Assembly: GCA_001938485.1 (NCBI GenBank)
Contig: MQRK01223612.1
Span: 1 to 60,866, forward strand
DNA: 60,866 bases
Direction of reading: 5' to 3'
Source of the DNA: Girardia tigrina
Taxonomy: Eukaryota
In this document: positions 155 to 55,292 of the stretch, piece after piece
Numbering within the stretch: position 1 is the first letter of the stretch
Layout: the number at the start of each line of letters is the position of its first letter
Program-made: the position numbers and the translations under genes
Notes under the pieces: model-generated
Seen by the model: only the letters and a program-made list of their open reading frames with translations
Told to the model about the DNA's origin: nothing
The model's database searches: none

Positions 155-3100
155 TTATTTTTTGCTGGATATAATGCGCCGCTTCTCATTTTTCAAATCA
201 TCAAAATTTGATATAAAATTTTGGCTTGATGTAATTTTTAAAATTGATGCTAAATGTTCTTCAGTCAATCTAGTTCGCTGTGTAGTTTTATTCATCTTCA
301 TTTGTGAAAAAAGCTGTTCACAAATATATGTGCTACCAAACATGGATAATATGCGAATAACAAAATGTCGAATTCTTGGAAAACGATCTGCGGGTAAGTA
401 TCCGTAAAATTCTGGAATACCAATTTCCTTATATTTTTGGTTCAATAAAGTGTCGCATCGTAGTTCTATAAATTCCATTTGCAAATTTTCATCAATATTT
501 TCAATGTCAACAGATATCGAATAGCAAAAAAAATTTAAATGAGACTCGCTACTTTGAAAATTCGAAAACCTCTTTTCAAAATCTTCTTCCAACATCTTTA
601 ATTGTTTCTCAAATTTGTCAAATTTTAATTCTGGATGTTCAAGCAAGAGTCTTACAACTTGAAAAATTAGATAAATTTTCTTTTTTTATTTGTATTTGCC
701 ACAGGGATATCTTTTGCTTGAATGTATTTATTTGGTTATACAATGAAGTTATGAGCAAGTTTCTACCCTGAAGATTAATATTGAGTTGACTGAGATGCCC
801 AGTAATGTCAACTGAGAAAGCCAAATCCTGTATCCAATTAACATCTTTCAGTTCAGAGCAGTCATAACCTTTAATTTCTAAAAAAAAGCACGATTTCGTA
901 CAACAGTTGTAAAAATCTTCTTAAAACTTTATGACTTGAAAGCCAACGAACTTCAGTATAATATGACAAATCTTCCTATTCAGATTCCACGTCATTCAGC
1001 AATGACATAAATTCCCAATGGTTTAATCTGCGTGCTCGAATAAAATTAACAACTTTAGCAATTGTTTTAAATACATTATCAATTTTAATTACTTTTTAGC
1101 ATAAGACTTGCTGATGGAAGTGTTGAACAGATTTATTATAATGGGTTTTGTAGAAATAAATACTCAAATTAGATAAACCAAATGTCAACAAGGGAGTATT
1201 TATTTCTACTTACAGAAAAGAAAATAGTTATTATAAAACGTATAACTATAGATAACACAATATAAGAATAAAATAAAAATAAAAATAACCGTGAGTCTTT
1301 AAAATTTTATTCATAGTCATCAAAAACATGAATCGGACATCAACGATAAATTCACAAACAAATATGCGGTAATTAATTGTAATGTTATTTTGAATTTCCA
1401 ATCAATTTCTTTATTGATTTTTATTTTAGTTTTTATAATCATTATTCTGTCCAACAAATCTGGTGGAATGTCATGAGAAGATATCAATTCTTCCGCACCT
1501 CTGAACGATTTACATAAATCTACTCTCATATAACATGACAATTATGTCAACTTTCAACAGAAATATTTTATTTCTCCAATTTTTTGGCTGCTTTATAGTG
1601 TTATTATGTCAGATAAAACTTGATTACATGATATTTGATTATAAACCTCTGATTAAAGATTTAATTTTTGTAATTGAAAAATAAAAAAAACAGTTAATAG
1701 AACAACTAAATCCCATAATATTAATGACATTTATTGAATAAATAACTGAAGCGACATAGTTCAATCTAGAAACCTTCTAGTTCTTTTGTAATATANNNNN
1801 NNNNNNNNNNNNNNNNNNNNNNNNNNNNNNNNNNNNNNNNNNNNNNNNNNNNNNNNNNNNNNNNNNNNNNNNNNNNNNNNNNNNNNNNNNNNNNCCGCAA
1901 TTCACATTTAAATCAGTTAGATAGCTTTTTCAGTTTTTCTTCGATATCTTCCAACGATAAAATATTCCAAACATAACAACAAGCGAGCACAAACACACAC
2001 ACTTGACCAAATAAAAATGGTATCAAAAATATACAGAACAAGTACAGACAATTCAGGAAGGAAACTGGTGAGAGAAATTCACACTACGGGTTTTAACATA
2101 AGCTTTTAGTCTACCAACGACACCACGTGTAACTCCAGTCATATAAGGGGCCCCATCAGTTGCCAAAGATACTAAGCTATTCATTGGAAGATTATATTTT
2201 TTAATAGTAATCATAAGTGCATCGAAAATATCATCTCCAGTTGTTGTACCATGCATTGGAATTACTTCTAATAGCTCTTCAGTTATTGTCATATTCCGAT
2301 CACATCCTCGAATAAAAACGGCTAAATGTGCTATATCTGTTAAATCAGTACTCTCATCGATTGCAATTGAAAACACTTCAAAATTTACCAACTGAGCGAA
2401 GTTGGTCTCTTAAATTTGAAGCAATGTCAGTGATTCTATTCGCAACTGTATTTCGGGATAAAGTAATGCTTTTAAATTTATTTATCATATGGGGGCATAA
2501 CTCTTCAGCTGCTATTATTAAACATTCACTGATGAAATCGCCTTCCATAAATGATTTTGATTTTTTTGCAATTGCATGCCATAACCGATAACTAGCTGTT
2601 ACGGCGGCCACATTTTCTGCAACTGGTTTAGTGAAAATGCTTTGTTGTTTACGAAGAACTGCATTTAATTCGATCAACTTTTCCTCACGCATTTTTCCAA
2701 CGAAATTTTTATATTCTTCATTATGGAAGGTATTGTGATGCCTTTGGATATTATATTCCTTGCACACTAAAATAGTTTGTTAACATATCAAGCAGAAAAT
2801 TTTACCTTTTTCTTGAATGAAAAAATATTTAATTTCCCATTTTTCTTGAAAGCAACGATGTTCACTTTCAATCGATCGTTTTTTACTCGTACTTGGCTTC
2901 ANNNNNNNNNNNNNNNNNNNNNNNNNNNNNNNNNNNNNNNNNNNNNNNNNNCCGATAACTAGCTGTTACGGCGGCCACATTTTCTGCAACTGGTTTAGTG
3001 AAAATGCTTTGTTGTTTACGAAGAACTGCTTTTAATTCGATCAACTTTTCCTCACGCATTTTTCCAACGAAATTTTTATATTCTTCATTATGGAAGGTAT

Positions 3101-3269
3101 TGTAATGCCTTTGGATATTATATTTCTTGCACACCAAAATAGTTTGTTGACATATCAAGCAGAAAATTTTACCTTTTTCTTGAATGAAAAAATATTTAAT
3201 TTTCCATTTTTCTTGAAAGCAACGATGTTCACTTTCAATCGATCGTTTTTTACTCGTACTTGGCTTCAT
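155..3269 (-). pseudogene. hAT transposase, frameshifted and interrupted
   Basis: ORF pieces include an N-terminal Zn finger (CLICQQ..NIQRHY..H), FSIAIDESTD, LATDGAP, HQQVLC, and the C-terminal dimerisation motif SMFGSTYICEQLFS. Confidence 0.92.
1121..2055. mobile_element. TG..CA insertion (solo-LTR-like) in the hAT transposase
   Basis: It starts TGTTGAAC and ends ACAATTCA, with GGAAG on both sides (1116-1120, 2056-2060). Transposase homology stops and resumes near these points. It contains an N gap. Confidence 0.6.
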
Positions 3270-5643
3270 CTACAAATTGAAGGGCTTTAATATTGTAATA
3301 TTAAAGAAAATTGCATGTTCTGTCTTAAGAAAGAAAATACTAATAAAACTTACCGCATTAAAATTTATATTTATGAAAAAAAGCTGNTNAAATTAGACNT
3401 AATAAAATTCGAAAAAATAAAAAAAACAATAATATTTAAACAAATTTCCTAACTATTTAAATTTAATAATTGTTGATCTGAAAAATAAATAGAAATGCAC
3501 TCGTATAAATTTTCACGAAGATTTGTTTTTATTTTTTCAATAAATTTGATTTTTATAATAGATTTTTTTTTAGAAAATTTTAAAAATTTGTTAAAATTTT
3601 AAAACCATTGCGGGCCGCAAAAAAGTAAGCAGCGGGCCGTGAGTTTGACATGCCTGTTGTAAATAATACACTAAATTAGTAATGGACATTTATTTAAAAT
3701 TAAAGTATTTGTAAATAAAAGAAACTAATAAATGAAGTTTTAAACAAATAGACCCAAAGTCATCATAATTTGACTTCATAATAAAATTAATAAATCAAAC
3801 CAGAGACTTTATTAATAGTCAATAACGGTTACCCCACCCATGGTGAACAAAAATAAGACAGTAAAATAAAATAAAATATTATAATTGTTACGTTCCATAT
3901 TTTGCACCTCAAACCCAGAACCCTTTCACACATTACATTACCCTGCGCGCACGAAAGTTTGTCAGAGTTGTGGGGATAGTCAAACTCGACTATCCCCGGT
4001 AGTTTTAAATGATTCCATGCACGCCGGACGCAGAATAGGGTGAGGGATCCTTGGTAAGGAATGCTTTCACCCGGGAGTCCCTTGCGATCCTTGAGAAACC
4101 TTGAGCAACCTTCTAAAACAAAATAGAAAATTAATTAGCTTAATTAGACTAATTAAAAACTTTACCTAAGATAATCCAAGCCAATTCACCCAACGAACGG
4201 AGAATTGTTTATCAGATAGATGGAGANCGGATACCGAAGATAAACAGTTCGAGGACCACATCCTGTAAGTTCGCGGCAAACAGGCCGGATGACCGCGAGC
4301 GCAAAACCCCGACAGGCGAGCTACAAGAAACAATGATAAACAAACTATTACCAGATTACCCTGACGCAGGATATCGCGAATCGGACGAATAAACAAATCA
4401 TTCCTAGCTCTCTGCCGCGCACGCAAGATGCCGAAATCTCAGACGATTTTTGTGTCTGACGAGGTATAAGTAACCGAACTGGTTTGCACATTGAGCAGAT
4501 AGCAATTTTTAATTTATTTTTCGTACAGCATTTTTAAAGAATTTGTATCAACCCACGATTAAAGCGAATTATTCTTGTTTAACTCAATTGACATCCTTTT
4601 GATCACAAACATTTATTTTTACGAAAATTTATTGTTAATTGTACGAAGAATTATTTGAGCCAATTTATCTCAAGAAAGCTTATTTGAACCAATCTCATGA
4701 AAGTTATTATACGAATTATACGAAGAATTATTTGGCAAAAATTTATGCGAATTTATATTTACGGAGCCGACGAAATTTAAGAATTCCTTATATATTATAC
4801 AATGTTATATTACATTATATTATATTATATTATATATTCCCCTGAACTTATCTAGATCGTTCCTGAGGTTTTCCGAGATCCCTGGCTCCGTCTGAGAACT
4901 CCTTGTAATCCTTCGAAATTCCTTTGAGGCTTCCTAAAATAAAACAAAAAGTTAGCAATTTTAATTAGTCTAAGTGACATTACCTCGATAATTTATAAAG
5001 TCCATCCACGCGAGAACTTCATAAATCACCATTGTTTATCGTGCCAAATTGCCGAAACGATAAACATCGTTGGTCCACGCGCCGACATAATCTAAAGTAA
5101 CAATCGGCATTGCCTTCCTCCTGTAAACAGGACGTTGTCCGAATCCAAAAACATAAACAGGACGCTTCGAGTCCCTGTAGGGTATAAATACCCGAAACGA
5201 CAAAAAAACACACAATTAAAATAATTAAAACAATTTATTATTATTGACATTAACAATTCATTGTTCGCACCACATTTTTAACGAAGTTGAAGTTAATTTG
5301 TATCAAGAGAAATATACGAAGAATTATTTGCCAAAAATTTATATTTACGGAGCCGACGAAATTTAAGAATTCTTTAAAGGTATACTCGCTGTTTATTGAA
5401 TAAATTTTTATTTCCTTTAATAAAATTCCCTTTTATATGTTCCTATTTATTATATTGTTTCCATAAATAATTGTTTTCGGTTCATTATTATTTTATTGTT
5501 GTCTCAATTAAATACTCGCTTTCCATGTGTTGTTGTTTTGTTATTGACGTATTTGATTAAAATATCTTATCACGATTGATTTTTCATCTCTACTAATTAC
5601 TGTTTTGCCATTAATATAATTGATTAAAATACCTAACTTCATT

Positions 5644-5793
5644 TGTCACGACCCTTTTGTTCATAACGGTTTTAAGTGCTCAAAGCCCCCAGTGGCTATT
5701 AGGGGTCAGCCACAACTCGATTTCAACTTATACTATTTTACAAACTGTTTTAATACTTATTTAATTACTAAGTTCATTTGTGGGTCGGACGCC
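5644..5793 (+). ncRNA. Family-A structured domain, partial (hairpin and pseudoknot)
   Basis: GTGGCT/AGCCAC is crossed with GGGT/ACTC at 5692-5718. Homology is lost after GGGTCGGACGCC. Confidence 0.6.
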
Positions 5794-8202
5794 TACACGA
5801 CTACACGACAATTAAATTAATAAAATTAGTAAACCAAACAAATAAATTATCTGTCACTAATATAAACTTTCAAATTCATTTCAAAACTTTCAAAAAAAAA
5901 TTTTTTTAAATCCAATTTCAAAATTCGTAACCCTAAATTTATTAAAAATTTCATAATAACATCGTCATTCCGAAGTAGGAATTTTTCAGCAGTATTATGT
6001 AAAAAAATTAATTAAACATCGAAATTTAAATAACGGAATTTGCAATAAATTTTCAAGCGTTCAAATTCTTAACAAAACTTTTGTTTAGTAAATTATAAAC
6101 TTCGCGTGAATAAAATTATCAAAGAATTGTAATTGAAATTATCGAAATCATCATACAATTCGAATTGCTTAATTTAATTTTAAAATTATATAGGCCCTAA
6201 TAATTAATTACGGAAAGGTCAAAACACCCTTAATAATATTCAAATCAGATAAAAATTACTGTTATTATTATTGTCGAAATTAAAGGTGAGAAAGTAAAAA
6301 AAAAATTTCAAAATTTATTTGTTTGAATAATCTCATTTCGACCTTTAATTCGCGGTATGAAATCAAACCTCCTCAAAAGTCATAATTATCAATCGAATTA
6401 TATCGCAATGATCGTCTTTCAAAGTTAACAAGAACGTTCACAGTTCCTAACTAGGGCCGGTAACTCTTACTATTTAATTTTCCTTTCGATAAATCTCGTT
6501 TTTTCATATCTAAGCTTTATATCTCTGTTTTATAAAATCCCATTACTATTTATTCACGAGTATAATAATAGTCCCTGTCTCTTACTATAACAAAACTATT
6601 CACAAAAGATAAACGTCAAAGGCCAATAAAATTAGAAATATAAAAAAATTTATTAAATTATTGATAAATGGTTAATATCTCGCAAACGGGGTAATCGTTA
6701 TTTCGATAATACAGGAATTGCTAGATCGCCCGTTGTGTGTGAATTGGCGGCTCCATTTCGTCGAGGAACGATATAACGCGCTCGCCCCCGATGAACGCCT
6801 CGAGAGAAATCAACACCACGTCGATAATCATTGGGACCAGGAGGCCCCCTTCACACTCTCGCGGCTCCGGCAATTGCAAATCGAGTTGGGGCATTTACGG
6901 CGAGGATTGATGGCGGTGGTGATGGTGCTAATTAATTACTTGTACGAAAAAGGTAATCTATTTCTGTAGTCGTGCGATTAATATTTAAGTAAAAATTCAT
7001 AAAAACACAAATCATAAATAAAATTCATATTAAGTCAGTAAATAGATACATAAATTAAAATTTACAGCTTTAACAAGAATTTCGGGTTTCGGAAACTCGG
7101 ATTCGGAGGAATGTCGTCGGTTTCTCTTCGCGTATCGTCGTGTAGAGGGAGTTCTCTTGACGCTTGGTTAAGTCGGAATCGGATGATCGTCCTGGCGCCG
7201 GAAGCTATCAGATTCTCGTCTCTTCGTCAAATGGGTCGTTCGTCGGTTATCTGTCGTCGCTCTGCGTCGGGTTCTGATATTCGTTTGGTTTTGGAATGAA
7301 TAACGCTCAGTAATAAGTTGTGCAAAATATTTTTGAAAAATGTGCCATTTGCGGCAGTATGGCTGTTGGATTTATAACAGTCATCATCTCACCTATCGGG
7401 GTGTGCTTTGTCGTGGCATCTTCTGATTCGCTCTTGTTAATAATTTCGGGCTCTCATTTGTCAGGACTGTCGTACCATACAGTGACTGCTTGTCACGCGG
7501 TTCTTTGTCACCGATGACTATTCATCGCGTGATGTTGTTTTTTCTTTGTGGGCCTGACTCATGGTAAGTTTTGTTTATTGTTCTTTGTCTTTCTTAATTG
7601 GCCTTTGTCCTTTTTCAATTAATTTATATATCTTTACAGGGGTATAACTTTTCAGGGGAATATCTCACAGCTTTGCCGATTTCGTTCAGGACCTTGTCAT
7701 TTTCGGGGCTACAAGTGGAGGGTCCGTTAACCTCGTAGTGTTAACGGATTGCCTTGGAAGTAACTTTATTAATTCTTGACCTCTTTTTAATTAATTAATT
7801 TTCTTTTTAAAGCTCTTAGTGCTTTTCTCAATCTTCCGGAGCACGACCATTTATTCTCAGGGATGTGTCTCACTCCACTCTACTTGGAGTGAACCATTTG
7901 TTCGTTTTCTCTTATCAGGTATGTTTTTAACCCGTTTATTTACTTTCTTGACTGATTGTTTTTAGTCCTATCTCGGCGTACAACATTCCTCTGGGCGATC
8001 GGGAGTATCTCAAACTTAATTTGTAATATTATGGTTTCTAAATATATGTATTATTCTTGTGATTTTCGCTTTTTCTCTCTTTGTTAATTGTTTTATAGTT
8101 GATAGTTGATATTGGACCGTAGTGTTATAATTAAATAGTGTTCTTTCTTTTATTTTCTCTTCTTATTTTTATAATTCTAATTTCAATTTCTAGACCGCAA
8201 CA
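5644..8202 (+). mobile_element. Family-A element (TGTCACG..GACCGCAACA), nested
   Basis: TSD CATT (5640-5643, 8203-8206). Both ends and the spliced 3' part are homologous to 20056-22875. Confidence 0.85.
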
Positions 8203-9669
8203 CATTATTGTTATCTCAATTCAAATATTCCGATAATATGATGAAGCATGTAGAGTGGGAAGGTCTTCTCGAGATAACGACCGGAGAGTGCGGGGACCGG
8301 GATTGAGAGTACAGTTCACCTCTTATCCAAGGGATCGAGCGAGAGGGTCCTTGGATTCGGACGTGTAAGCGAGTCGTGAAACCGTTGTAAATAATTGTAA
8401 ATAACTTTAAAACGATGACTACGATTAATTTAATTATTTTTTTTTATTTTCATTTATTTTTATTTTTCCTTTTGTTGATATTTTGGTATTTCCTTTAAAA
8501 GTTGAAAAAAATTCCAAATTAATTATTCTAACGCCGTTTATAACTATTGTTATACTTTCTGTTTTACATTTGAATTTCTTCTAATAATTTGGGCTATTTT
8601 AACAAATTTTTTTCGGAACATTCTCTAACCAATTGTTATCTTTCGCCAATTTGGTTGGGAGCACCTGGTACATTTGCATCTTGACTTATTTTTTATTTTA
8701 CTAATTTTATTAGCCGTATCGTTTCGTAATTAATGTGATTTATTTGTTAGTTAACTGTCGTAAATGTCTAACCTTTCTTTGCTTTAAAAATTGTTCTGAG
8801 TAGATTTCCATCTGATAAATTTTAGTAATAAATTTTGTAAGGTTTGTAATAATTTTTGTAAGATGCTGTAAGATAAAGGCTTACGAAATTGCAAGTAATC
8901 GTAGTGAAGTGATGTGAATCATGATGCGTTACCTTCGAAGTGTTATACAGATCAGTTTGATTTCTTTGTTTCGTGATTAATATTGAGCAGTTAGAGTTAA
9001 AAAATTAAAATTGTAAAGTGAGATCTCGATTGAAACCATAGAGTCCAGAGCACGTTTACAAACTCAAAGTTTAAGCAGTGAAGTCGAATAAATGGCCAAA
9101 TGTTAATGTCAGCGAAATATGGAAATCAGACGAATATAAACTATTAGAAGTTCTTCGAGTTATCAATCAAGTCCCAGTCTACAATCAATTAAATCTTTAA
9201 TTAAAATCTTGAATCGAATAAAGTCGAAAATCGAAAAATGGTGTAAGAGTAAATTCGAGTAATTTGTGAATGTGAGAGGTTAATGATCAAGAGGACGAAT
9301 AAATTAGATAACAGATAGAATACCGAAAGTGAGGAAATGTTATCAGTGTAAACTCATGGTCCGAATTCAACGTGTTACGACTGTCAGCTCGGGTTTAGGA
9401 GAGTATTGTAAAGTGAGACCTGAGCTAAATAATGCGAGTGATTACGTATCGACAGATGAAAACATGTTACATCCTATTTCGATATGGAGGATAAACCAGT
9501 TTCGATTTCTTTGAGTTGAAGCAGGAATTGATATCTTGGTTTAAAATTCTACAGCTCGAAATGAAAAGAAAAGAGAAAAATATTTATTAACGATCGATCG
9601 ATGTTATGCAAATTAAGGTTCTATTCTTAAAAAAAATTAAACCAAAAATTTAACACATAATATATACGA

Positions 9670-10050
9670 TGTCGTGTTCCCCTTCAAAACAACATTATTG
9701 ATGACTCTGAGCCCCCATCCGTTTTCCATTAGAGTTCAACGGCAACTCTATCAAACTAAGCTAATTACATCTCAACGGGAACAGACACGACTCCTTTGCC
9801 TACATCAACGAATTGTGCAGACATTAGAGCGCCTTCGGGTCCTTAACCAGTAACGAGGATGGCCCGACTGGTGACTGAGCTTCTAGAGGGGATGATAATA
9901 ATTCTATACTACGACTATAACCATACCAACGCACTAATACTCGAAACTACAGGAAACGAAGAGAGCCTCAAGAAAGAAAATGACGATCGGTCCGCGTGTC
10001 CCTTGCATGCTGCAGCCGGTCGGCATCACCCTCCCAGGTTCTTCGCCCCA
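9670..10050 (+). ncRNA. Family-A structured domain, full
   Basis: Pseudoknot CCGTT/AACGG plus AGAGTT/AACTCT (9719-9749), GCC-TTCG-GGT (9831-9840), stem ACCAGT/ACTGGT, GGGGATGAT, and a long stem at 9985-10021. Confidence 0.7.
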
Positions 10051-10841
10051 TAAAAGAATTTAAATAAATTCAAATTCATCATAGGTTGTTTATTAGATTA
10101 GTTATTCAATATTGATGTCTCACAGAAAATAAATAGTGGAGTTACGTTAATTTCGGATTGTCAAGGCAAATTAATTTTAACGAGTATTAAAAAAAGTTAC
10201 TTAACACTTCTTATTGATTTTAAATAGATTCATTTGTCACTTTCATGTTACTTAAGATGAATACAAAGTTTAATGAAGTAGCGATAGAAGCCTTGAGATT
10301 CAATATAACACATAAATTTGATAATGAGCAAAATGAAAAGGATCACAAGTCACTTTTAATATTAAATTAAGAGTTTTGATTCACTTGAGTCTTGATTCAC
10401 TTTTCGATACTTTTACATAGGGTTCTCCACTTCTTATAGTTGTGACATGCAAGTTTAGCCATCCTTTCTTATACAATGTAAAATAATTCGGTTCGAAAGT
10501 TTATTATGTCAAAATAATTAAGATGTATAACAACTTTTGTTATTAATTTTCTTTGCAAATTCTTTTTTATATTATTTCAGTGATACGGAAATTTGTTTCA
10601 GTCGTTGAAATATTTTAAGTACACAGAACATAATCAGGAATGAAAATGTGTACACCTCTTCCAAGGCTCCCCAAGCTCACACTCTAATGACTACGATCAC
10701 CAGATTAGGATTGGTGATACTATTGATTTGTTATCGTAGTTCGTTGATCTGTTTATATTTAAATAACAGACTTCCTAAACATCAAACTGGTCACTTATCA
10801 TTCAATAAACAAAAACGGAATATCCGCACTTGACAATGTTG

Positions 10842-11336
10842 TCAATTCATATTTTCATAGCAAGTTGATGGCAACGAATTCGATTCGGGAACAAAATGAA
10901 CGTCTAATTCACTATTACTTAAATATGTTATTGGGTTTGTGTTTTGTGGATTGATTAAAGGTGTTTGTTCAGTGTTGTTAGTCTGTGAAACTGGAGAAAT
11001 ACTATCAACACTGTCTGAGTCATCATCACGACCGGGAATTTTAATTTTATTCTTACAAATCGGACAATTTCGTTTTTGTTTCAGCAACCAAGGATCGGTA
11101 CAAGAAGAATGGTACGCGTGGTTGCAGGGCAATATCCTTAATTTATCTCCCTCTTTAAAGTCATCAAGACAAATCGTACAAGTTTCAAAAGGGTCTTGGC
11201 CTTTTACAAATTTTTTTTTCATATTAAAGAATTTATTTAGATGATCGAAATATAACATAAAGTCCATTATAATATATCGGCATTGAGCAGTAATAATAAG
11301 ACAAAAACACAAAAAAAGAATAAAACTCAGTATCAA
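10842..11336 (-). CDS. TM plus RING-H2 E3 ligase, RNF13/RNF167 (Godzilla)-like, intronless, no PA domain; start codon uncertain, possibly a pseudogene
   Basis: CTICLDDFKEGDKLRILPCNHAYHSSCTDPWLLKQKRNCPICK has all eight ligands and follows a hydrophobic helix. An acidic/Ser-rich tail contains TEQTPLI. Confidence 0.85.
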   Translation of the reverse strand: MILSFILFLCFCLIITAQCRYIIMDFMLYFDHLNKFFNMKKKFVKGQDPFETCTICLDDFKEGDKLRILPCNHAYHSSCTDPWLLKQKRNCPICKNKIKIPGRDDDSDSVDSISPVSQTNNTEQTPLINPQNTNPITYLSNSELDVHFVPESNSLPSTCYENMN

Positions 11337-12029
11337 AGCACAAGCAAATAACCGAATAAAAAAATAAAAATTAATTAAAACATGAATACATACTTCATAA
11401 CAATAGATTTTCTCTGACTCAGCTAATAGGTTTTCTTTGACTCGGCTCTTCCTAACAATAGATTCTCTCTGTATCGGTTTTGTTCAATTAATAACCAAGA
11501 TTTGAGGAATAATGAAAATTCAACAAATTTTCTCTCTAACAAAAAAAAAATTGCGTGCGGCCTTATATACTTCCATCCGAATCGTTCAAATGTTCACGCA
11601 GGATGTGCGTGATCAACAGGATCATGAGGTAATTTTTTTGTTTTGTCATTCACATATTTATTAAATTCACGCAAGATATTCGTGAATAAACCATCTGGAA
11701 TGTCGACTAGAATTCCAAATGTCAGATGTAAGTACATATTAATTAATTCATATTTTTAATTATCTTTAATTTTCTAGCTTGGCCCCAAGCAGCGAATTGG
11801 AATCCCGACCCGATTCGACGCCCCGACAAGCTGAGAGTCATTTAACACTACATGAGGATAGTCTAGTTTGACTATCCTCAAACACTCTGAACACGGGCTC
11901 TCATGCGTAAGGGGTGTCGGGTTTGGGACAGGGTTTATATGCAGCTACCTCAGGAAAATGAAAGGGTTTGTGTAATTATATCTCTGTCGTAACAACGAGT
12001 TAAACCTAATTACAAGCAATAATCGAGTA

Positions 12030-12420
12030 TCCGGACGAAGGGTTTTGAGAAGCGGTGCGGCAGCCCATAGCATGCACAGAGGCACGTGGGCTGACCATCA
12101 CTTGTTTCTTCGAAGTGTCCTCGCCAGATATAAATAAATAAAATCGACCTTGACGAAATCGAAGAAAATAAAATCAAAAATCATCCCCTCCAGAAACTGA
12201 GTTACCAGTCGGGTCATCCTCGTTACTGGTCAAGAACCCAAAGGTGCTCTAATGTTTACACAACTTGTTGATGTAAGCAAAGGAGGCGCGTCTGCTCCCC
12301 AAGTGTAGTGAGTATCTATGTAGAGAAATAGTGATTGTTAGAATGATTGCCGTTGAACTCTAAGAAAACGAATGGTGGCTCAGAGCCATCATTAATGTTG
12401 TTTTGAAGGGGAGCACGACA
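12030..12420 (-). ncRNA. Family-A structured domain, full
   Basis: Reverse-complement homolog of 9670-10050 with all blocks in the same order. Confidence 0.7.
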
Positions 12421-14268: not shown

Positions 14269-14934
14269 TTAATAAATATAAGTCATAAGTAAGAGTAAAT
14301 CAACATGGGCATAGTGAAACCAAATTGTTATTGATGTAAGTTACCATTGCGAATTAAATAAAATAAAACAGTAAAGTATAGAATGGCATTTATATAGTAG
14401 GAATCGTCAATTAACCTTATGAATTCGCAAAATGACGTCGAATACGAAATCGAACGTGAATATTCAAGTATCACTCTAAAAATCATTTCGTCCAAAATTG
14501 TTAGTAAATTTGATTGTTAAAAAATTATTTGAATAAAACATGATCAAGATAAAATGCAGTATTGATACTAGTTTTGTGAACAAATAGCGTCGTCATATAA
14601 AGTAATTGTCATTCTTACGAGGTAGAACAATAAAAGCGAAATGAAATTAATTACTGGAATAATGACATTAATAGAATTAAAAATAAGTCATGACAAAATA
14701 AAAATTAAGTGGAGTGAAAAAAAATAAATTTTTTTCTGTAAAGGTATAATGAATTCTTTAAAGAGTAGTATGGAGATCCGAAGTCAATGATCCGAGAAAC
14801 CTTTTAGCAATGACGAAGGTCATTCCAAACCACCGCCATTCATTTTTGAAGGCTCTCCTCGGTATATAGACTGCACAGCAAAGTTTACCAGTTGGACTCA
14901 AATGTATATATATATGACGAAATAAATTTATAAA

Positions 14935-15100
14935 CATACCCCGTGGATGCTGAGACCACTAGTCGGGCAATACCCGTTACTGGGTAGGACCCGTAGGCGC
15001 TCCGAAACCTACACTACCAGTTAGATGAGCGTGAAAGAGGAGCGTCCGCTCACCTTGCAGAAGTAAAAGTATAGAGTAATAGCGGGTTTCAGTTCCCCGT
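14935..15100 (-). ncRNA. Family-A structured domain, partial
   Basis: The minus strand has a GGTGAGC..GCTCATC stem, GCC-TACG-GGT and CGGGT-ATT-GCCCG. It appears truncated within the pseudoknot. Confidence 0.6.
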
Positions 15101-16029: not shown

Positions 16030-16689
16030 GCAATCTTCACTATTATTAAAACTTCTTAGCAACGTTCATTTAGTCTATGTATATTTATGTATATAATTAT
16101 TCTTTTATTATTCCAATTAATCATTTCATTTAATTAACTGCTTTAACTGCTTTTTTTAACCATTTCGTCTCGTTCATTAACCGGTGTAATTAAGTCTCAT
16201 TTTTAGTGTCACCAATATAATATTTTGTTAATGATCTTTCTTAATATATGTAAGTCAAACTTCGTGTTCCAACTTTCATATGTACAAATCGGTGGTTTGT
16301 TCGAAGCGGTTTAGACCAAACTTATCCCTACTATTACAATAATTAACCATTCCGACGTTAAAGCCGCATTGAGGAGATCACGGATAAAAAAATGATAAAA
16401 CGACACATACCAAAATCGGAAAAATAAAATGATGTGAATCTAAAATCAGAAATGCATAAAATAATGTGAACCTAAACTCAGATCGAAAGAGACGAGAATG
16501 ATGAGGTCGATGGGGATATGAATTTTTACGGGAGCAGAAGTCGCTCAACTAATGAGAACATAAGTTCGAATGAACTCGCACAAAGTCATTGTGTGTAACT
16601 ATACCAATAGATTGGCTAATAAGAGATGTATTTATATAACGTCGTGAGAGAGATAAAAGATTCAAATATTAAAGAATATGGGTGACTAG

Positions 16690-17073
16690 GACGAAGAACC
16701 TTCTGGAGGTGACGCAGGCCGACTGTAGCATGCAATGGGCACGCGGTCGACCGGCGTTGTTTCCTGACGTCTCTCTCCGTCCGATTTAATTGATAAACTA
16801 ACACAACAAAATACTTAGTTATAGGGTGAAACAATATCAACCCATTTGGACATTGAGACTACCAGTCGGGCCATACCTGTTACTAATTCGAACCCGAAGG
16901 CGCTCCGAAGCACACACAACTTGTTGATGTGCGCGGAAGAGACGCGTCTATTCCCTCAAACAGTGAATAATTATCGAAAGGAATAAGTAGTGCATAAGAG
17001 TTGCCGTTGAATTCTACAAACGGATGGGGGCTCTAAGCTAACAAAAATGTTGCCGAGAGGAGGGAAGACGACA
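16690..17073 (-). ncRNA. Family-A structured domain, full; far end of the element not found
   Basis: TGTCGTC terminus at 17073, followed by the pseudoknot, GCC-TTCG-GGT and the long stem GGTCGAC..GTCGGCC. Confidence 0.7.
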
Positions 17074-20055: not shown

Positions 20056-20310
20056 TGTCACGACTCTCTTGAGTTAGAACATTTTTAAAAGCTCTTGAGC
20101 CCCCAGTGGTTATAAAGGGTCAACCACAACCCAATGTCGCTTTATGAGTTCATTTATTTATTCCCTTGAATGTGTTTGCACCTAAATGGGTCGGATGCCT
20201 CTTCTCACCTGACATCTGACTAGTAGTGCCAAGCTCGAAGGGCCTGCGGGTTCAGTTTAAAGATAGGACGGGCTGTGGGCCCCTCTGTCTCGTGTTGCTC
20301 GGGGATGATT
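20056..20310 (+). ncRNA. Family-A structured domain
   Basis: GTGGTT/AACCAC plus GGGT/ACCC (20106-20132), GCC-TGCG-GGT (20242-20251), AGATAG/CTGTCT enclosing GGGC/GCCC, and GGGGATGAT. Confidence 0.7.
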
Positions 20311-21664
20311 TCGTGCTAGGTAACATTTATATTCTTAGTGAATGCGTCTCATGCTGGTTATAACTACTGTGTTGTATGTGCCATCTGTAACATTTACTGT
20401 GGGTGCCGCTCATGCCACGTTTGTCGGTGTGTCTAAAACTATGGAGATATCGTCATTAATATTATTAATATTATTATCATTGTATACATAACAGTCTGCG
20501 CATCAACAACTAGTATCAACGACGGGTTTACGGTATTCACTTTACACCTCATTTACTAATTATTATAATATCATTATTGTATGTTGCTATGTAACCGCAT
20601 ATTGTCATTTTATTCTTATTAATTCTAAGAGTAATCATTTGTACACTTTCTATCGACAACAAATAACGCGTTTATATTTACGAAAAGACTTTTTGCTTTA
20701 TTTATATATTATTTATATATACATAAAATCACTCCTCTAATCACAATATTCAGTGTTCGATGTTGTGCGGATTTATTTACTCAGAACGGATTTTCATATT
20801 TCAGTTTGTTTAATACCAGGTAGAATCATACCAATATAATAATTCATCATACTATTAACCTATCTAATATTCAAATACGAGCTCGCTAGGCTTAATTTCT
20901 AAAACTCAGTCATTTAATATTAGTAATTCTTCGTCTCAAATATCTACAACGATTCATTTATGACTGGGCTCGTTTTATTGATTGATTACTTACAACATAC
21001 AGACATATCTCGATTTCAGGTCCCTGCGGACCGATGTATCATTACCATCAGAACGAAACCATTCTCTCTCTGTAAGACTTCACTGCCACTGGAGTTACTA
21101 ATTTGAGCAACAAGTTTGTAGCGTGCTACATTTGACGATCGGATTTCTTATCTTTCTAATGGATAAACGAGGATAACAACGACGGCTGGAACGAAAATTA
21201 ACTTCCTATTAACTTCCTAAAAGAGAAATTATCACTTAAACACTCGGATTATTTACAAATAGACAATAAAAAAGTTTGTATATATATATATATATATATA
21301 TGTATACAAAAAAAATAAAAAAAATAAAAAAACAATATTTTAAAAAATTTAAATTACAGAAAGATTTTTTAATACAAAGATATTTATAAGATATATATAT
21401 TTTTTTGCGATATTTTTCGCAATTGATAAGAAAAGGAAAAATTCTATTAAATCCGAACCGGTCACAAAGAAACTGAAACTTGCCAATGAAAAAATCGATA
21501 TATATATATATTATATATATAATATATATATACCAATGTTCTCGTTGGTATTGATTCGAAAGGATTGTGTCTCAATATGGGATTATATATATAATTATAT
21601 ATATATATATATATNNNNNNNNNNNNNNNNNNNNNNNNNNNNNNNNNNNNNNNNNNNNNNNNNN

Positions 21665-21704
<40 letters not shown>

Positions 21705-22875
21705 CAGGTTAATAATTCAACATTGTTACATAAAGATAATAATTACAAGAACGATATCGATACGGCCCGGAGGATAGTTCTGTGCCAATCAGTTCCCTAC
21801 GGTTGTATATTTCACCTGTCGACATGTCAGTAAACGGAAGTGCCTATCTCGGGAATTAGGATTGCGCCCTCTTGATTAGCTCGTTGCTCGCTGCGCTCGT
21901 CTTTCGTCTCGTTGTCAGATGCTGCTAACAACTTGTCTATTTGGTTCTGTCGAATATTTCGCTCTGTCAAAATTTTGCTGATTGGCGTTCTTTTATCTGT
22001 CAGTTGTCTAGAATTTTCGAAATGATTTTTGATTGTCGTCTCTAGTCTACAAATTACCGTCATATTTATAACAACATTTCTTGTATATTGTTGTGTCTTT
22101 TCGTCGTGGAACTATTTCATTGGCGCAAATTGTTGTTTCTGGAATTTCATTTGTCGGGGTCTATACAACATGCCGATTTCTGATAGTGGTTCTGTCATTC
22201 TCAGAACACATGATCGGTATTATTCATTGATAAATCGTGCTGATTAATCGCATGATGGTTATTTTTGGATTTACGGTTGACTCACGGTAATTCTTAATTA
22301 TTTTTTCTATTTTAATTGGTTTTTCTTTATATTTCAGGGTCTTATACCTCTGCTCAGGAAGATACCAGTGTCTCGCGGGCTTCATTTAGGGACTCGGCTT
22401 GCGAAGATATTTCAGGAGAGGGTCGGATGACCTTCCATCTTTACTGTGAAGTTCGGTAAGGAATTTTATTATTTTTTGGTTTCGTTTTAATTAACTTTTT
22501 CTTTCTTAAGGCTTACAACTTTTCTCGGGGATATGTGATCTTCAGAGGTGTTATCTCTATGAACTCATCTAACGATATTCTATCTAGGGGAAAATATTCG
22601 TTCGATTTCTTTTATCAGGTGGGTTTCTATTCATCGTTTTCTATTTTCTTTATGTCGTGTTTTAGCCTTTATGATATTCTCACTGCTCGATCGGACTGCG
22701 AGGGGATCAATAACAATTCCGGACAACTTCGTTAACCTCTGCATGTAATGTGATACGGCGGTTAAATATATGTATTAAAGTAATGTCTTACTTTCTTGTC
22801 CTTCTTTGTGCTTGCTGAATGTTATGTTTGGTAACCTGCATATGTGTGTACTAAAATAGTTTTTTGACCGCAACA
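20056..22875 (+). mobile_element. Family-A element (TGTCACG..GACCGCAACA)
   Basis: TSD ATCA (20052-20055, 22876-22879). Same termini and intron positions as 5644-8202. Contains an N gap. Confidence 0.85.
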
Positions 22876-28260: not shown

Positions 28261-28749
28261 TTCAAGAACGATGATACGGTTACAACAGATAGGAAGTTTT
28301 AAAAGAAGATAATGTATGATGATGACTTAAAATTACCAAATCATTTGCTTCATTATTTTTTAACGTTTCTGAGTTTTGCATTTCAGCCGAAATTATAAAA
28401 ATATCCCAACAATAAAGAATAGTCAACTCTTTAGTAGATGTAGTATCAGACTGAGTAATATTTTGTTTTTCTAATGAATCGCAGATGCAGCGAAAATTTA
28501 TTGATGCGAAAAAATATTGATATTTATCTTAGTTAAAATAATTATTTCAGAGTATTAGTAGGATATTATAATATAACTATATAGATGATTGATATAGAAT
28601 TACGACAGAATCGTATCACAGTCGCCTCGTGTAAATAAGTTTTTCCTGTGTAAATAAGTTTGAGTCTACAGTTTAGTTCCTGAACAGAGAGCCAATGCGT
28701 TCAGAAGTTTTGAGTAAATCAATTTGAGAACTGGAATTAACCTAATTAC

Positions 28750-28990
28750 ATCATCCCCGAACGATATTGAGCCGGCTGGGCGGCACATAGCCCGTCCTGG
28801 ATTAATTGAACCTGAAGGCGAACCAAACTCTTCACTATTTATAGATGAGGAGCGAGGGAAACGTGTCCGCCCACCAAATTTGTAAAACGGACTTACACAG
28901 AGATGTCATATACTGGGTACAGGTTAAACCCTTAAAAACCTCTGGGACTCAGAGTCGACAATAATGTCAACACCTGAGGTGGCCGTGACA
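28750..28990 (-). ncRNA. Family-A structured domain; far end of the element not found
   Basis: TGTCACG terminus at 28990, GACTC-T-GAGTC, AGGTT/AACCT plus GGGT/ACCC, GCC-TTCA-GGT, and GGGGATGAT. Confidence 0.7.
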
Positions 28991-37177: not shown

Positions 37178-38990
37178 GGGAACGTTCGCTTATTACGTAA
37201 CACTTTAGGGGGAGGGGGTCAATGATTTTGTTACGGTTTGTTACGAGGAAGGAGGGAGGTTCGAAAGGTTGTTACATAAGAAAAAAATATTTTGCATTAT
37301 TGCTCTACATTTCATTCCGTCTTTAAAAAAGAATATCTTTCAATAAAATGCATTTTTTCAGAATATGTTAAGTTAAAACTACATCAGGATATTTAGTAGT
37401 AAAGTAGAATGTTTTTACAAATAAAAAAAATTGAGAAGTGACTGATATCAACTTTAGTGAACTAAAAATGCAAAACAATCATCTTCAGCCAAGAAACTCT
37501 TGTTCTATTGATGGTAAAAAACATGTTAAAATAGTTCCAGTTCCCTTAATCAAGGCCTTGTGAGATAATCATAAAAGACACCCGGATTCTGTTTTTTGCA
37601 CAGCTACTTACAATAACCTCTGTGAGCCTGCATTATTTTTAGGTCCTGAGGAAGTAGTAATCATTAGTCAAGACGATAAGGCAAAAGTACCGATTGGTTT
37701 ACCTGCAGCTGATTGTCAAGCGCCGTTGTTGATGAACATGGAATATCGAGTCACACTTCCTGATCATGATTGGTTTATTGCTCAACAACACAAGTTGATA
37801 CCTTCAGTTTATGCTGAATTAACGATTGATAACAACGGTTTTGGTGATCCAAATGCAGTTCAATATTCTGTTCCTACATACATGGCTGTAAGATCAGGAA
37901 AGCATTCTCATTCGACCGCATATTCGCATGCTAAAGATTTTGAACGTTTATATGACATTGATCAGTTCAAACGATTTCTTTTCGGTGAAAATAATTTACC
38001 AAAACCTGTAATGATAATTTTAGTTGATGGTGGTCCAGATGAAAATCCGCGTTATCAAAAAGTAATTGAAACAGCTATACATCATTTCATCAAACGTAGT
38101 CTTGATGCGATCTTCATACTAATGCTCCCCAATCGCAGTACATTCAATCCAGTAGAATGTCGAATGGCTCCTCTTTCAAAACAACTGTCAGGACTCATTC
38201 TTCCACATGATAATTATGGTACCCATCTTGACTCAAATGGAAAAACTATAAATAATTATTTAGAATACAAGAATTTTAAATTTGCTGAAGAAGCATTATG
38301 CGAAGTTTTCTCAAATGTCATCATTGATTCTTTCGAAACCGTTGCTGAATTTATTGATCACGATAGCTCTAAAATGGAATCAACTAATTTAATTCACAAA
38401 TCAGAATCTTGGATTGCCCAACACGTTCGATCAACTCAATACATGATACAAATTGTAAAATGTTTAGACAAGAATTGTTGTGGAACCATTCAAAGTAAAT
38501 TTCATAAAATCATTAAATCAAGATTTTTACCGGCCCCAATTCTTCTACATTATGCTCCAATGATTGAAATGGAATCGATGGATATCAACAAATTGAAATA
38601 TACTTCACTATTTCAAAGCCTTCATCTTGAATCACCAGAATCACCATATGACCAATATTGTCCTAGTGTCAATGACAAAGTTCAATCAAGAACATATAAG
38701 AAGTGCAAAATATATTTTGCATCCCTTACTTTATTAAGCAATCATAAAAAAAATCACTCCCGAGAAGTGATTTCTCCTGCTGCAAAGACTAGGAAAAACG
38801 AGTGCTACGTCAGCGTGAGAGAGAATTTATGGTCATTACGGAAGAATCACCAGGATTGGATACATGCGAATGGGTAGATATGGATGATGTGATAGTAGAT
38901 TCAACAATGAATTTCGATAAATCATCCGAGGATTCCATACCAGTTTTTGACTTAAATTAGCGTTTAAACCCTTGGGTAAATGAATAAATG
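37178..38990 (+). mobile_element. Zator DNA transposon; right TIR not found
   Basis: TTA|GGGAACGTTCGCTTATTACGTAACAC terminus (GG start, TWA target), followed by a G-rich tract and a transposase. Confidence 0.75.
37480..38987 (+). pseudogene. Zator transposase (largest open piece 37726-38877)
   Basis: SQDDKAKVPIG, LPDHDW, HKLIPSVY, VDGGPDENPRY and FNPVE.RMAPLS motifs. There is an upstream stop and a probable 3' frameshift. Confidence 0.8.
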
Positions 38991-46885: not shown

Positions 46886-48726
46886 CCCATATCCATAAAC
46901 AATATGGATTAAAGTGAGCTACTTTTATGTTTCATTTAATAATTTTTAAAACATGTTTTTTACATCATCTTTGTAAAATAATTCAAATAATTCTATGTTA
47001 ATATTTAAAAATTGAAAACATTATGGAAAGCAAAAATTATATTTTGGAACACCGTTTTGAAATTTTGTGTGAATTAATAATTTTGGCAGATTGCCTACCA
47101 TCATAAGAATAAATTAACATTAGCTTTGTATCTTATATTAAGAAGCGATTATTATGAAATCAGTAATGTCATCATCTTATTTGGGCTACTTTTCAACAGA
47201 TACGTAGAGTGTAAAGCATAAACAATTATTTTCAGATCTATTTATTATTAAAATCCTTAAAAGATTTCTAATCTAAAAGTTTTTACATCTTCACTCTCTT
47301 CAAATAATCATTAAATTATTTACACAAAATTTTAAAGTATATTTTCTACTTTCTATTTATAATTTGTACAAGAATTTCTTCGCTATATAAGCAACAAAAC
47401 TAATGTTAATTTTAGTCTGAAGATTGGGGGCAATTCATTTTACGTTACATAAACATTTAATTTAAAAATTTGTTTCAAAATGTTCACTTTATATCGTTTT
47501 ATTTTTAAGAGTTTATGCAGAAATGTGATAAACCAATAAATAATATTTTACAAACATTTTAAACTGAAATTTATGTGAAATATCATATATTTTTGTATTA
47601 TATTTGTACATAAAAGATTTCATTAAATTTTAATTTTAAGACTGCGGGATTCGAAACTTATTACTCGGTATTTTCAAAAGATATTAACTGTAAGATTATT
47701 GATTTTATTAATAAATTAAAATTTTTAATTTAGAGCGATCTCCTGACAGTTTTTTCCATGCTTCCTTTTTCAACTAAAAAAAGGATGTACAGTAAGTTAT
47801 TTATTTATATTTCAGAAACCCTATAATATTATATTATATTAAGTTATATTATATTATACTAGGCTTTCGCAAAAGTTTTGTAAAGAAAAAGAAATATTTT
47901 ACAATTCTCAGTTTGGCTGGGCTTTAGAACGCACCACTGCGAATTTTCAGGAATTTTTTTAAATTTTTGATTTCAATAAAATATTAATGGTTTTATTTTT
48001 TGGTAAAATTTAAAAAAAAAGAATTTAAGTAAAAGAATTTTTTAATGAAATTTTAACATTTTTCATTTATAAAATAGAAAAACATTTATATTTCCTTATT
48101 ATAATAATTAATTAATATAAAACATAAAAAATTTCATTTAAAAAACCATTTTTTGATTGACTTTGATTCAATCGATTTTGATTTAAATTTTGATATTTGT
48201 TTTAATTTATAAAAAAATTTAAATTGTCCAAATTTCAAGTAAATTAAGTAAGATGTATTTTTTAATTATAAATATATATATTATAAATATTAAAATCAAT
48301 GATTGCATTATGTATAATAAATAATTTTCGCAAAAAAAGATATTTAAAAAAGATATTAAAAAAGATATTTTTTATTTTTAAATAGTTGTTAAATAGTTAA
48401 AAATAGATTTTTTGATAGTTGTTTTATTATATAATTTTTAATTTTAAAATATTTAATAAGCATATTAACATTAAAATATTTTAACTTTTAAGTAAAAAAA
48501 TAATAAATTATTCTGGTGAGATTCAAATGTAAATTAACCCCTCATAAAAATAATTAATAAAATAATAATTTCTTTATTATTTATTTTATCATAAAATTAA
48601 TTAAATATTTTATTAATTCTTGTATTTCTTTATTATTTAATAAATTAATTGTTTATTTATTCTGTTTGTTTAATTAATTTATTATTTTAATTTTTGTTTT
48701 TTTTCTAAATAAAAATAAATGAAATA

Positions 48727-48791
48727 CTCCCTCTGTTCCGAAATAATGTAAATACATAATAAATGTAAACATTATTTCGGAACAGAGGGAG
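48727..48791. mobile_element. 65-bp Tc1/mariner (Stowaway-like) MITE
   Basis: 23-bp TIR CTCCCTCTGTTCCGAAATAATGT, with TA on the left flank. Confidence 0.85.
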
Positions 48792-49553
48792 GAATATATT
48801 TTATGAAGAGTAAACTTCAGAAAAATATCTGTATCGATTGCATAATTCGTGGGGCAATATAAAAGCCACTTTGGAGTTTTAATGGAACGACTTTTATATT
48901 TTTCCTTACTTAAACTTACTCTTTATAAAATTAATTAATCTATTAATTCATTTATTTTTATTGAGTTCCAGAAGGAAATTTTTGGTGAAATTTTTGTTTA
49001 AAAATACAACAAAAAATCAAATAATAAATTAATTAAATAAAAAAAATAAATAATTAATTAAGTATCTACATTGAAAAATATCTATATATGATTACACAAT
49101 CATTGATAACACAATTTGTGGAAAAAAATATAAAAGTCGTACCCCGAGGAGATTAATGGCAAAATTTAACATTCAATTTTGCATATCTTCATTTATTTTA
49201 TTCTATTTTGTTCATAATTTTAGAAAATTATTTTGGGTGTAGTTCCGTATGGGCGCCAGCGAAAATAAATGTAAAATTGGAATGTTTCGTTTGAAAGTGT
49301 CCGAAATTCAAAATATGTTTGATTACTATATATAGACTTTTTCAAATGATTTTTTTGATCTTGTTCAATGTAATAAACAGTTACAGGAACAATTTCAAAA
49401 CAACATCCAATAAATAATTTTTCGTATATAATTTTAATTTTCAATTTACGATTCTATTGCGAATCAATATCGCTAAAAGAATCATAAATTCAAATATAAA
49501 TAAATTTTAATTTTAGGTAATTTATAATATAAATATGAAAATATAAATAGATA

Positions 49554-53851: not shown

Positions 53852-55259
53852 TATTGGGTATTTAATTTGAATTTGAATTTTAAACACAGAAATCAGAAGG
53901 ATTTGTTTGGTGTTCGGCGCTCAATTATCAGACCCAACGTTTAAACTCGATGAACTCTGATTCCAATAAATAACAAACTTCTTCGAATAATCGTTTATTT
54001 AAATATACAAATACAATCTTTGAGCAAAGGTTTGTACAACTTTTTAAATGATTGGAGGAGATATTATAAGATGCTATACAGATTAGAAGATATTAAAATA
54101 ATTCTGGAATCCTATACAGGAATTTTGTTTCACTAATTAATTTTTCTTGCTTTTACTCAATTTTTGCTTTTTTATTTTTTTAGCTTTTTGTATAAAAATA
54201 TTGCTATATAAAAATATTTATACAACATTTTATATGATATCTAAATATTGATCAGGAATATCAAAAATCTTGTATTGATGTGTAGATGGAATCACCACTT
54301 AGTGTTTGCAAGCTCTCGATTGTTTGTTTTTTTTACGTGTTCGTGCATTAAGAGTTTTTTTGTCAGCAGAGCTTTTCTTGATAAACTTGTTGAGTTAGTG
54401 ATCTTGTATGTGTTTGGGCAAACGGTCGCTGATAACATGAGCACCTTGATTCATGATTAATAAAAATTTTAATCATCATTCAAATCCAGGGTCGATTTGT
54501 TGTTATTGTTATTTTCATGGACAGGTTGACCAAATAATAGGTAAAATAATTGGTAAGTACAATACTAATATGATGTACAATACCATTCGAGATGGGAGGC
54601 CCACATTGGTAAGTAACATAACAAGGTAGATCAAATTATCATATGAAATAAAAGCTTTCCGGTAAATAGGAATGACAGTGAAAGACACATTTTAATATCA
54701 TTTATATAAAATATTTTAATTAAAAAATTTTCTTTTTTAAAAAAAAATTTAAAAAATTATTATTTTGAAAAGGCCAATTAGGCCAAATAATCTCTTAGTT
54801 AGGCCATTAAGGCCAAAATCCAATAATTAGTCTATTAAGGCCATCGAATAAGTCAATTAGGCATTAGGCCGTGTCATATTACAAATTCCAATTAGGGATA
54901 AAAATTGATGATCAAACTCATCGATGAAATTAGCTAATAATGAAATGGCCTAATGGCCAATTTCTTATTGGTCGGCTGATAGGCCGATCGAACAAAAAGG
55001 GGAATATTCCCCAGAATTTTCATTTTTTTCAAAAAAAAATTCAAAAGACCATCTATACAATTTTTATATTTATTTTATTTAATAGATTTTTTTAGATATA
55101 TTTTTCTCTAAAACCATAAGCTCCCAAAATTCGGAGCCATTCCGGAAATGAGGCAAAATAGTTCCTCATTCCCAAGAATGACCGAAAGAGGAGCCTCAAG
55201 CTTCAAAAAATTTTTTTATATAAAGTTAATTACCGTATGGTACATTATTTATATATACA

Positions 55260-55292
<33 letters not shown>

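Follow-up and report, generated by a model that had tools for sequence, protein, structure and literature searches.

The 60,866-nucleotide contig of Girardia tigrina analysed here (MQRK01223612.1; the window) raises a compact question: what is the small fold of two crossing stems that recurs in it close to sharp sequence ends, on which strand does it act and what could it do? The first-pass annotation had described six copies of an H-type pseudoknot, and six are present, with both stem pairs found in the sequence. The stem that it numbered 1 reads CCGTT/AACGG at 9719–9723/9738–9742 and at 17.0 kb, TCGTT/AACGG at 12.3 kb, GTGGTT/AACCAC at 20106, GTGGCT/AGCCAC at 5692 and AGGTT/AACCT at 28.9 kb; its crossing stem 2 is intact at 9730–9736/9744–9750, while the 17.0-kb copy has a single mismatch in it and the 12.3-kb copy a degenerate form. 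The proposed distance of about 50 nt from a terminus also holds, all six copies lying 47–51 nt from a sharp TGTC terminus. The observation is confirmed, its interpretation was partly right and its choice of strand was wrong.

The copy at 9719 lies in a 2,325-bp solo LTR (9670..11994, minus strand) that belongs to a Burro-like giant retrotransposon of the Gypsy type, recognized from its ends, its target-site duplication (TSD), the PBS and polypurine tract (PPT) and an internal region found elsewhere in the genome. Its U3 starts at 11994 and its U5 ends at 9670, the sense strand being the minus strand, and an ACGA target duplication flanks it at 9666–9669 and 11995–11998. TGT..ACA ends with 4-bp TSDs were found for four elements in the window and about 20 others of 0.66–5.7 kb; the three further window elements and the roughly 20 elsewhere share the end type and have unlike middles, and no transposase was found inside these elements. 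The genome searched is 1.43 Gb in size, AT-rich and holds thousands of relatives of the window copies, a 12-nt terminal pattern giving 7,296 genome matches versus 1,472 for the reversed control. With a genome-wide pattern, a PBS starting 0–4 nt past the pseudoknot end was found at 227 places (control, 1), and about 88 of the first 100 PBS junctions listed, counted by eye, bear a pseudoknot-type LTR end. Over 18 nt this PBS is complementary to the 3′ end of the tRNA-Pro(TGG) that the genome itself encodes, perfectly so at, for example, loci L352, L356 and L365. A purine tract precedes the opposite LTR end at 223 places (control, 1); this PPT is short, with 7–10 purines (examples at L406, L411, L414 and L438), and at L414 and L438 a hairpin-type LTR start stands directly behind it.

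Past the PBS, the internal region holds short accessory ORFs followed by gag-ubiquitin-env-PR-dUTPase-RT-RH-IN, an order of gag, env and pol that was traced behind the junctions of one subfamily group only. Pfam domains recognized there are a Ty3 capsid, zf-CCHC, ubiquitin, a viral fusion glycoprotein, protease, dUTPase, RT, RNase H and integrase; gag and the order PR-RT-RH-IN are present on L427–L431. The env-like fusion protein (PF24664) matches with E-values of 1e-24 to 1e-48, with the protease following it in one frame, and the dUTPase (E 0.002–0.005) and ubiquitin (E 3e-5) matches both score below the curated cut-off. For the window's own subfamily a PBS, a PPT and a weak integrase match (E 8e-7) were found, and its first accessory ORF gave no match. 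Taken together, the PBS, the PPT and the internal domains in Burro order identify the window copies as solo LTRs and their pseudoknot end as U5, so that the pseudoknot sits in U5, 50–80 nt upstream of the PBS. At least five short (140–170 aa) coiled-coil-like accessory ORFs without a Pfam match lie ahead of gag in the first 7 kb past the PBS (L420, L428, L430 and L436). No BCL2-like, BIR, MATH or ankyrin domain was matched by Pfam in the 16 ORFs scanned, and searching the genome with PF00452 and PF00653 yielded 13 and seven short-frame matches, respectively, none linked to the element.

Burro/GYPSM1 elements are giant Gypsy-like LTR retrotransposons of dugesiid planarians (PMC6431247), and BURRO1 is described as abundant and controlled by piRNAs (PMC8532177). 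As far as the published description goes, Burro and the present element are alike in their accessory ORFs, CCHC-knuckle gag, ubiquitin-like domain, RH and IN, in an env-like fusion protein between gag and protease and a dUTPase between protease and RT, and in having multi-kilobase LTRs and thousands of copies (PMC6431247). By predicted domain content and order, the element is placed as a member or close relative of this known family. That description covers the proteins only and mentions no LTR RNA structure, primer identity or LTR-captured pieces of host genes (PMC6431247). A literature search found no description of Burro LTR structure or of a duplicated PBS in U5, a point on which the supplement of the primary Burro paper may bear. 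The element is therefore known and its U5 structure apparently undescribed.

Other identities were considered for these termini. A Ginger-like or Pack-type DNA transposon came into question since no PBS was seen at 94 sampled termini, only two of which had TGG within 4 nt, and about 55 other ends share no flank; this reading was rejected because the PBS was found once a spacer of 4–5 nt was allowed, spacers of 0–3 nt having caught few. Ginger elements are described as having 40–270-bp terminal inverted repeats, an integrase-like transposase of their own and no PBS or PPT (PMC2836005), whereas the ends of the present elements are unlike beyond about 9 bp, no transposase is present and both PBS and PPT are. 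A PBS-like flank at L107 proved to be an insertion into an unrelated Gypsy element, and Polinton-type polymerase pieces near two copies showed no link to the element.

Three of the LTRs in the window are nested. An older solo LTR (3886..12420, plus strand, TSD TAAT), with its pseudoknot at ~12340–12372 and a degenerate S1 (one of the two stems defined below), received both the 9670–11994 LTR and a solo LTR of another subfamily (5644..8202, minus strand, TSD CATT; pseudoknot ~5692–5717, upstream helices lost), each of the three having its own 4-bp TSD. A further solo LTR lies at 20056..22875 (minus strand, TSD ATCA; pseudoknot ~20106–20131). U5 domains of two more LTRs, for which the other end was not found, are located on the plus strand at 16831..17073 (pseudoknot ~16997–17023) and 28744..28990 (pseudoknot ~28915–28942). 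A terminus profile finds seven copies within the window, the seventh being a partial U5 domain on the plus strand (14928..15094) that is truncated, so that the 3′ part of the knot is missing along with box A (see below) and the terminus. Target sites favour A/T at positions 2–3 and 6–7. Genome-wide, some 5,800 excess U5 termini stand against about 225 PBS and 225 PPT junctions, or roughly 24 solo LTRs per internal junction, a rough figure given the duplicate haplotypes in the assembly. A contig from a leaf-litter RNA library joins a pseudoknot-type LTR end to PBS-like sequence and is an independent sighting of the junction.

The 9670 LTR also carries a captured piece of a PA/RING-H2 host gene in LTR sense (10708..11483, minus strand; zf-RING_2, E 1e-14), which we take to be RNF13/RNF167-like; the PA domain was detected in a longer copy of the piece (L036). 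Positions 10708–11217 align collinearly with a deep contig from one of the public runs, with 16 differences and no gap. More generally, solo LTRs of 0.66–5.7 kb have very different middles with host-gene pieces in either orientation (L036, L032, L325 and L024), among them a PA/RING ligase, an innexin and a piece that by eye resembles a peptidyl-tRNA hydrolase. A separate covarying hairpin lies in U3 (11854..11879, minus strand), about 115 nt from the LTR start, with 883 exact 22-mers in the genome and none in the control. In some subfamilies the start of U3 forms a structured domain, with a 26-nt hairpin, compensatory outer pairs and flanking complementary arms (L031, L034, L166–L195, L414 and L438); other subfamilies have a different, AT-rich U3 start. 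Elsewhere in the window, 48724–48794 is a short inverted-repeat element ending CTCCCTC..GAGGGAG, presumably a Tc1/mariner-type MITE, with sub-threshold matches to plant miRNAs in Rfam. Pieces of hAT transposase, the first matching PF05699, and two frames of 437 and 221 aa without a Pfam match occur among 155–685, 2378–3269, 37564–38877 and 55226–55891; 55226–55891 resembles the cargo of LTR copy L024.

The functional strand is the one opposite to that read in the first-pass annotation, namely the LTR sense strand. On this strand the H-type pseudoknot (9719..9750, minus strand) rests on covariation and geometry: S1 pairs 9750–9744 with 9736–9730 (7 bp) and S2 pairs 9742–9738 with 9723–9719 (5 bp), with L1 at 9743 (1 nt), L2 at 9737 (1 nt) and a purine-rich L3 at 9729–9724 (6 nt). 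Across copies the loops measure 0–2 nt (L1), 0–1 nt (L2) and 3–6 nt (L3), which as modelled is classic H-type geometry, with a short L1 spanning the deep groove and a longer L3 the shallow groove. Ideal A-form distances, which follow from the helix parameters, are 19–26 Å across the shallow groove versus 10–13 Å across the deep groove. On the opposite strand a loop of 0–2 nt would have to span the shallow groove of a 5–6-bp stem; with these distances an L1 of 0–2 nt and an L3 of 3–6 nt fit the sense strand only, and the H-type loop geometry fails on the opposite strand as RNA. The non-canonical pairs point the same way: read on the sense strand, G·U outnumbers A·C by 12 to 2 at the subfamily level (p 0.013) and by 113 to 55 cells.

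A DNA fold on the opposite strand is nevertheless a distinct proposal, in which the pseudoknot would act as minus-strand strong-stop single-stranded DNA in strand transfer or in forming the integrase end. In B-form a minor-groove loop of 1–2 nt is allowed, so that steric constraints permit the antisense fold in DNA but not in RNA, and one subfamily has a fixed C·A in S2 (14/14) that would be G·U on that strand (G·T in DNA); these two points speak for a role of the strong-stop DNA. We nonetheless regard it as very unlikely to be the main function, as the fixed non-canonical pairs across the domain favour the sense strand in the proportion just given and the tRNA-complementary boxes A and T described below are complementary on the sense strand only.

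On the sense strand, both crossing stems show compensatory change. For S2 (stem 1 of the earlier reading), five of six pairs are changed on both sides and 90.5% of cells are paired in 42 copies from six subfamilies, a percentage that is biased upward as the seven copies from each subfamily were picked by best S2 score. Natural variants of S2 include CCGTT/AACGG (9670), GTGGTT/AACCAC (20056), GTGACT/AGTCAC (L346) and GAGGTT/AACCTC (L082). S1 (the earlier stem 2) comprises 4–7 bp and its register moves by one base between subfamilies; counted in the subfamily-specific register it is 93.5% paired, versus 56–65% when slid, over 105 of 117 copies (12 were left unparsed, and 11 in the S2 count made before copies were selected), and it has two compensatory changes between subfamilies. 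This count replaces a tool count on the 42-copy alignment (70.8% paired) that was out of register for three subfamilies. S1 is real but less well proven than S2. With each of the two stems changing in a compensatory manner, a pseudoknot is the predicted fold; it includes an invariant U–A junction pair, and L3 and the linkers differ between subfamilies.

The pseudoknot is one part of a larger domain. Conservation between subfamilies spans the last ~235 nt of the LTR, for which six helices are predicted from the alignments. P1, a long-range stem (9671..9786, minus strand; 9786–9777 with 9682–9671; 6/10 pairs changed on both sides, 90.9% paired), closes a single loop that holds the pseudoknot, box A and the att nucleotides at the LTR terminus. 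It is followed upstream by H3, an extended hairpin (9787..9832, minus strand; 10/16 pairs changed on both sides) with a 6-bp lower and a 10-bp upper helix, two single-nucleotide bulges and a purine-rich internal loop, and by H5, a bulged hairpin (9848..9870, minus strand; 7/8 pairs changed on both sides, 92% paired). In the upper helix of H3, eight G·U stand against one A·C at the subfamily level. A conserved segment (9888..9896, minus strand) forms the 5′ border of the domain; its imperfect complementarity to the tRNA-Pro D-arm is suggestive only, and no perfect 6-mer there passes the threshold.

When all column pairs were scanned without bias, P1, the upper helix of H3, a pseudoknot stem and H5 came out on top. 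In the 42 sense-strand copies, 89.5% of the cells of the named structure are paired and 28 of 44 pairs are changed on both sides, with a covariation score of 0.436 versus 0.192 for shuffled (0/500) and 0.066–0.143 for slid alignments. Relatedness inflates the shuffle test, and more weight is given to the count at the subfamily level, in which majority pairs comprise 215 Watson–Crick, 12 G·U, 2 A·C and 3 others, with 26 extra Watson–Crick pair types, five of them in S2. Twelve truncated, mis-started or outlying copies had been removed early and a k-mer filter for near-identical copies reduced 168 to 118. These data support the earlier claim that the fold is under selection. RNAalifold on the mixed alignment found only P1 and S2, because S1 changes register between subfamilies. 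Folded one at a time, decayed copies do not outperform their shuffles (z +0.75 and -0.64; means per family of 0.0 to -2.0), and such single-copy scores are uninformative. A UNCG/GNA-type mini-hairpin at box T showed no covariation and was left out of the counts. Coverage by public runs peaks on 9674–9934 in all four runs (contigs only), which may merely reflect conservation. Upstream on the sense strand, a second GC-rich conserved block (9956–10048 and 16689–16780), 75% alike between subfamilies, may be a promoter or the start of R.

A compact H-type pseudoknot with an invariant U–A junction pair could also suggest an exonuclease-resistant RNA or a piece of a self-cleaving ribozyme, and an exonuclease block, an export element and a ribozyme were among the roles first proposed. 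A search against the Rfam covariance models found no family at E ≤ 5 in the window and none at E ≤ 10 in six junction loci, with no match to ribozymes, xrRNAs or frameshift elements. There is neither a three-way-junction ring nor a nested double knot, no catalytic-type core is conserved, L3 and the linkers vary between subfamilies and the location is in U5 beside a tRNA-Pro PBS. The three proposed roles are unsupported, and a resistant element or ribozyme piece is, in our estimate, highly improbable.

That location gives meaning to the best-conserved unpaired motifs. Each pseudoknot had been described as adjoined by a GCTC..GAGC mini-hairpin and CC(C)CA; the hairpin shows no covariation and was left out of the counts, and its conserved half is a copy of the PBS. 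This box A (9707..9717, minus strand) repeats the first 9–11 nt of the tRNA-Pro PBS, matching the 3′ end of tRNA-Pro(TGG), and reads TGGGGGCTC(AG) on the sense strand. It lies directly 3′ of the pseudoknot, behind S2, and 47–51 nt before the LTR end, and the spacer that follows it diverges. The perfect 9-mer is present in 36–95% of copies in each of the six subfamilies and was equalled by one of 300 shuffled tRNAs. A second motif, box T (9836..9842, minus strand), is the complement of tRNA-Pro nucleotides 49–55, the 5′ strand of the T arm, and is a candidate primer activation signal, sharing its position and T-arm partner with the retroviral signal as reviewed (PMC11181671). Its perfect 7-mer occurs in 65–79% of copies in four of the six subfamilies, 165–206 nt before the LTR end, and in 11% and 0% in the other two, which include the window's own, the window copy having one change; nine of 300 shuffled tRNAs did equally well, and GGTTC is common to all tRNAs.

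Instead of being a tRNA site, box A may supply the U5 strand of a stem that frames the PBS. A conserved C-run lies in the leader 15–20 nt 3′ of the PBS and, with the PBS blocked, 38 of 42 junctions are predicted to pair it with box A at p > 0.5 (mean 0.87 versus 0.45 with a shuffled leader), in a thermodynamic test in which the junctions are mostly from one subfamily and the shuffled background is high. Box A is invariant between subfamilies, so that covariation speaks for neither proposed partner.

The U5 domain probably serves, and here we claim only moderate confidence, as a platform for primer loading and the initiation of reverse transcription. In the 5′ leader of the genomic RNA, with the R/U5 border assumed, P1 would close a loop around the pseudoknot and box A, and tRNA-Pro would anneal to the PBS over 18 nt; the freed strand of the tRNA T-arm would pair with box T in a contact like that of a primer activation signal. 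Box A could pair with the leader C-run, framing the PBS as a U5–leader-type stem, or it could dock the 3′ end of the tRNA first, stacked on the pseudoknot, with the knot blocking wrong priming. The pseudoknot would be a rigid scaffold or a brake, which Gag/NC and RT would have to unfold during minus-strand strong-stop synthesis. A bolder version, which we consider fairly unlikely, is two-site priming: the 3′ end of tRNA-Pro would dock on the PBS copy, stacked on a knot that blocks extension, and would then be handed to the PBS 50 nt downstream or be joined there by a second tRNA, box A switching to the leader C-run. If true, it would be a pseudoknot-gated tRNA switch timing the reverse transcription of a 30-kb genome, a two-site mechanism undescribed for any LTR element.

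The phrase 'RT or packaging signal' in the first-pass annotation belonged to the right family of ideas, although the fold was read on the antisense strand and is not a free-standing motif. Packaging is the other half of that phrase: the domain might mainly be a packaging or dimerization signal bound by Gag, with the knot as a protein-binding scaffold and the tRNA matches secondary. The bulged A's and purine-rich internal loops in H3 would suit this, and the Ty1 pseudoknot is reported to frame kissing loops used in dimerization (PMC5454406); yet the hairpin loops differ freely from one subfamily to the next, no self-complementary loop common to them was seen, and a signal wholly within the LTR would mark solo-LTR transcripts too. 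That the best-conserved unpaired motifs are tRNA-complementary supports a primer platform over packaging, and we judge the packaging reading unlikely.

It is likewise quite unlikely, in our view, that the fold chiefly controls LTR expression by suppressing or directing polyadenylation, stabilizing the RNA or governing translation of the accessory ORFs. The domain does occur in both LTRs and within the 5′ leader of the first ORF, the accessory ORFs starting ~80 nt past the PBS, and in one subfamily 18 of 21 copies have AATAAA/ATTAAA 90–120 nt ahead of the LTR end. However, none of the 18 copies from the window's own subfamily has this hexamer, which most other subfamilies lack as well, and expression control leaves the PBS copy unexplained.

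As a primer platform, the domain resembles several known systems in part. In Ty3 the PBS is bipartite and the primer tRNA likewise touches LTR-internal sites besides the PBS. The second part of the Ty3 PBS is located in U3, where it binds other regions of the tRNA, whereas the extra site in the present element, 50 nt upstream of a PBS that is itself complete, matches the acceptor end a second time. The 5′ (TIPIRT) pseudoknot of Ty1, as described, also has two stems with an interhelical loop of 1 nt, lies in the 5′ leader close to the PBS and is accompanied by further boxes complementary to the tRNA; breaking either of its stems lowers retrotransposition (PMC3592414; PMC5454406). It differs in being long-range (nt 1–326), with long structured loops, in extending into GAG and in holding the PBS in a loop (PMC3592414; PMC5454406), while the present knot is compact (30 nt) and lies entirely in U5 upstream of the PBS, inside a closing stem and followed by the PBS copy. 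The retroviral PBS segment shares an 18-nt PBS, which in MLV and HTLV-1 is likewise for tRNA-Pro, a T-arm-complementary motif upstream of it and an att site in a stem; in contrast, the main text of the review does not use the word 'pseudoknot', and none of its passages considered here describes a second acceptor-end match (PMC11181671).

The analysis fixes the polarity, the primer (tRNA-Pro) and the ends of these LTRs and shows that pieces of host genes are borne by thousands of solo LTRs. Cis-acting RNA structures have been mapped for few LTR elements, namely Ty1, Ty3 and retroviruses. Here, a 300-nt fragment, which is suited to in vitro probing with one tRNA, brings together a compact pseudoknot in U5, the duplicated PBS and a box like a primer activation signal. 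The element, an env-bearing giant of the Gypsy type, fills planarian genomes, and its six diverged subfamilies form a natural series in which covariation of the primer domain can be followed.
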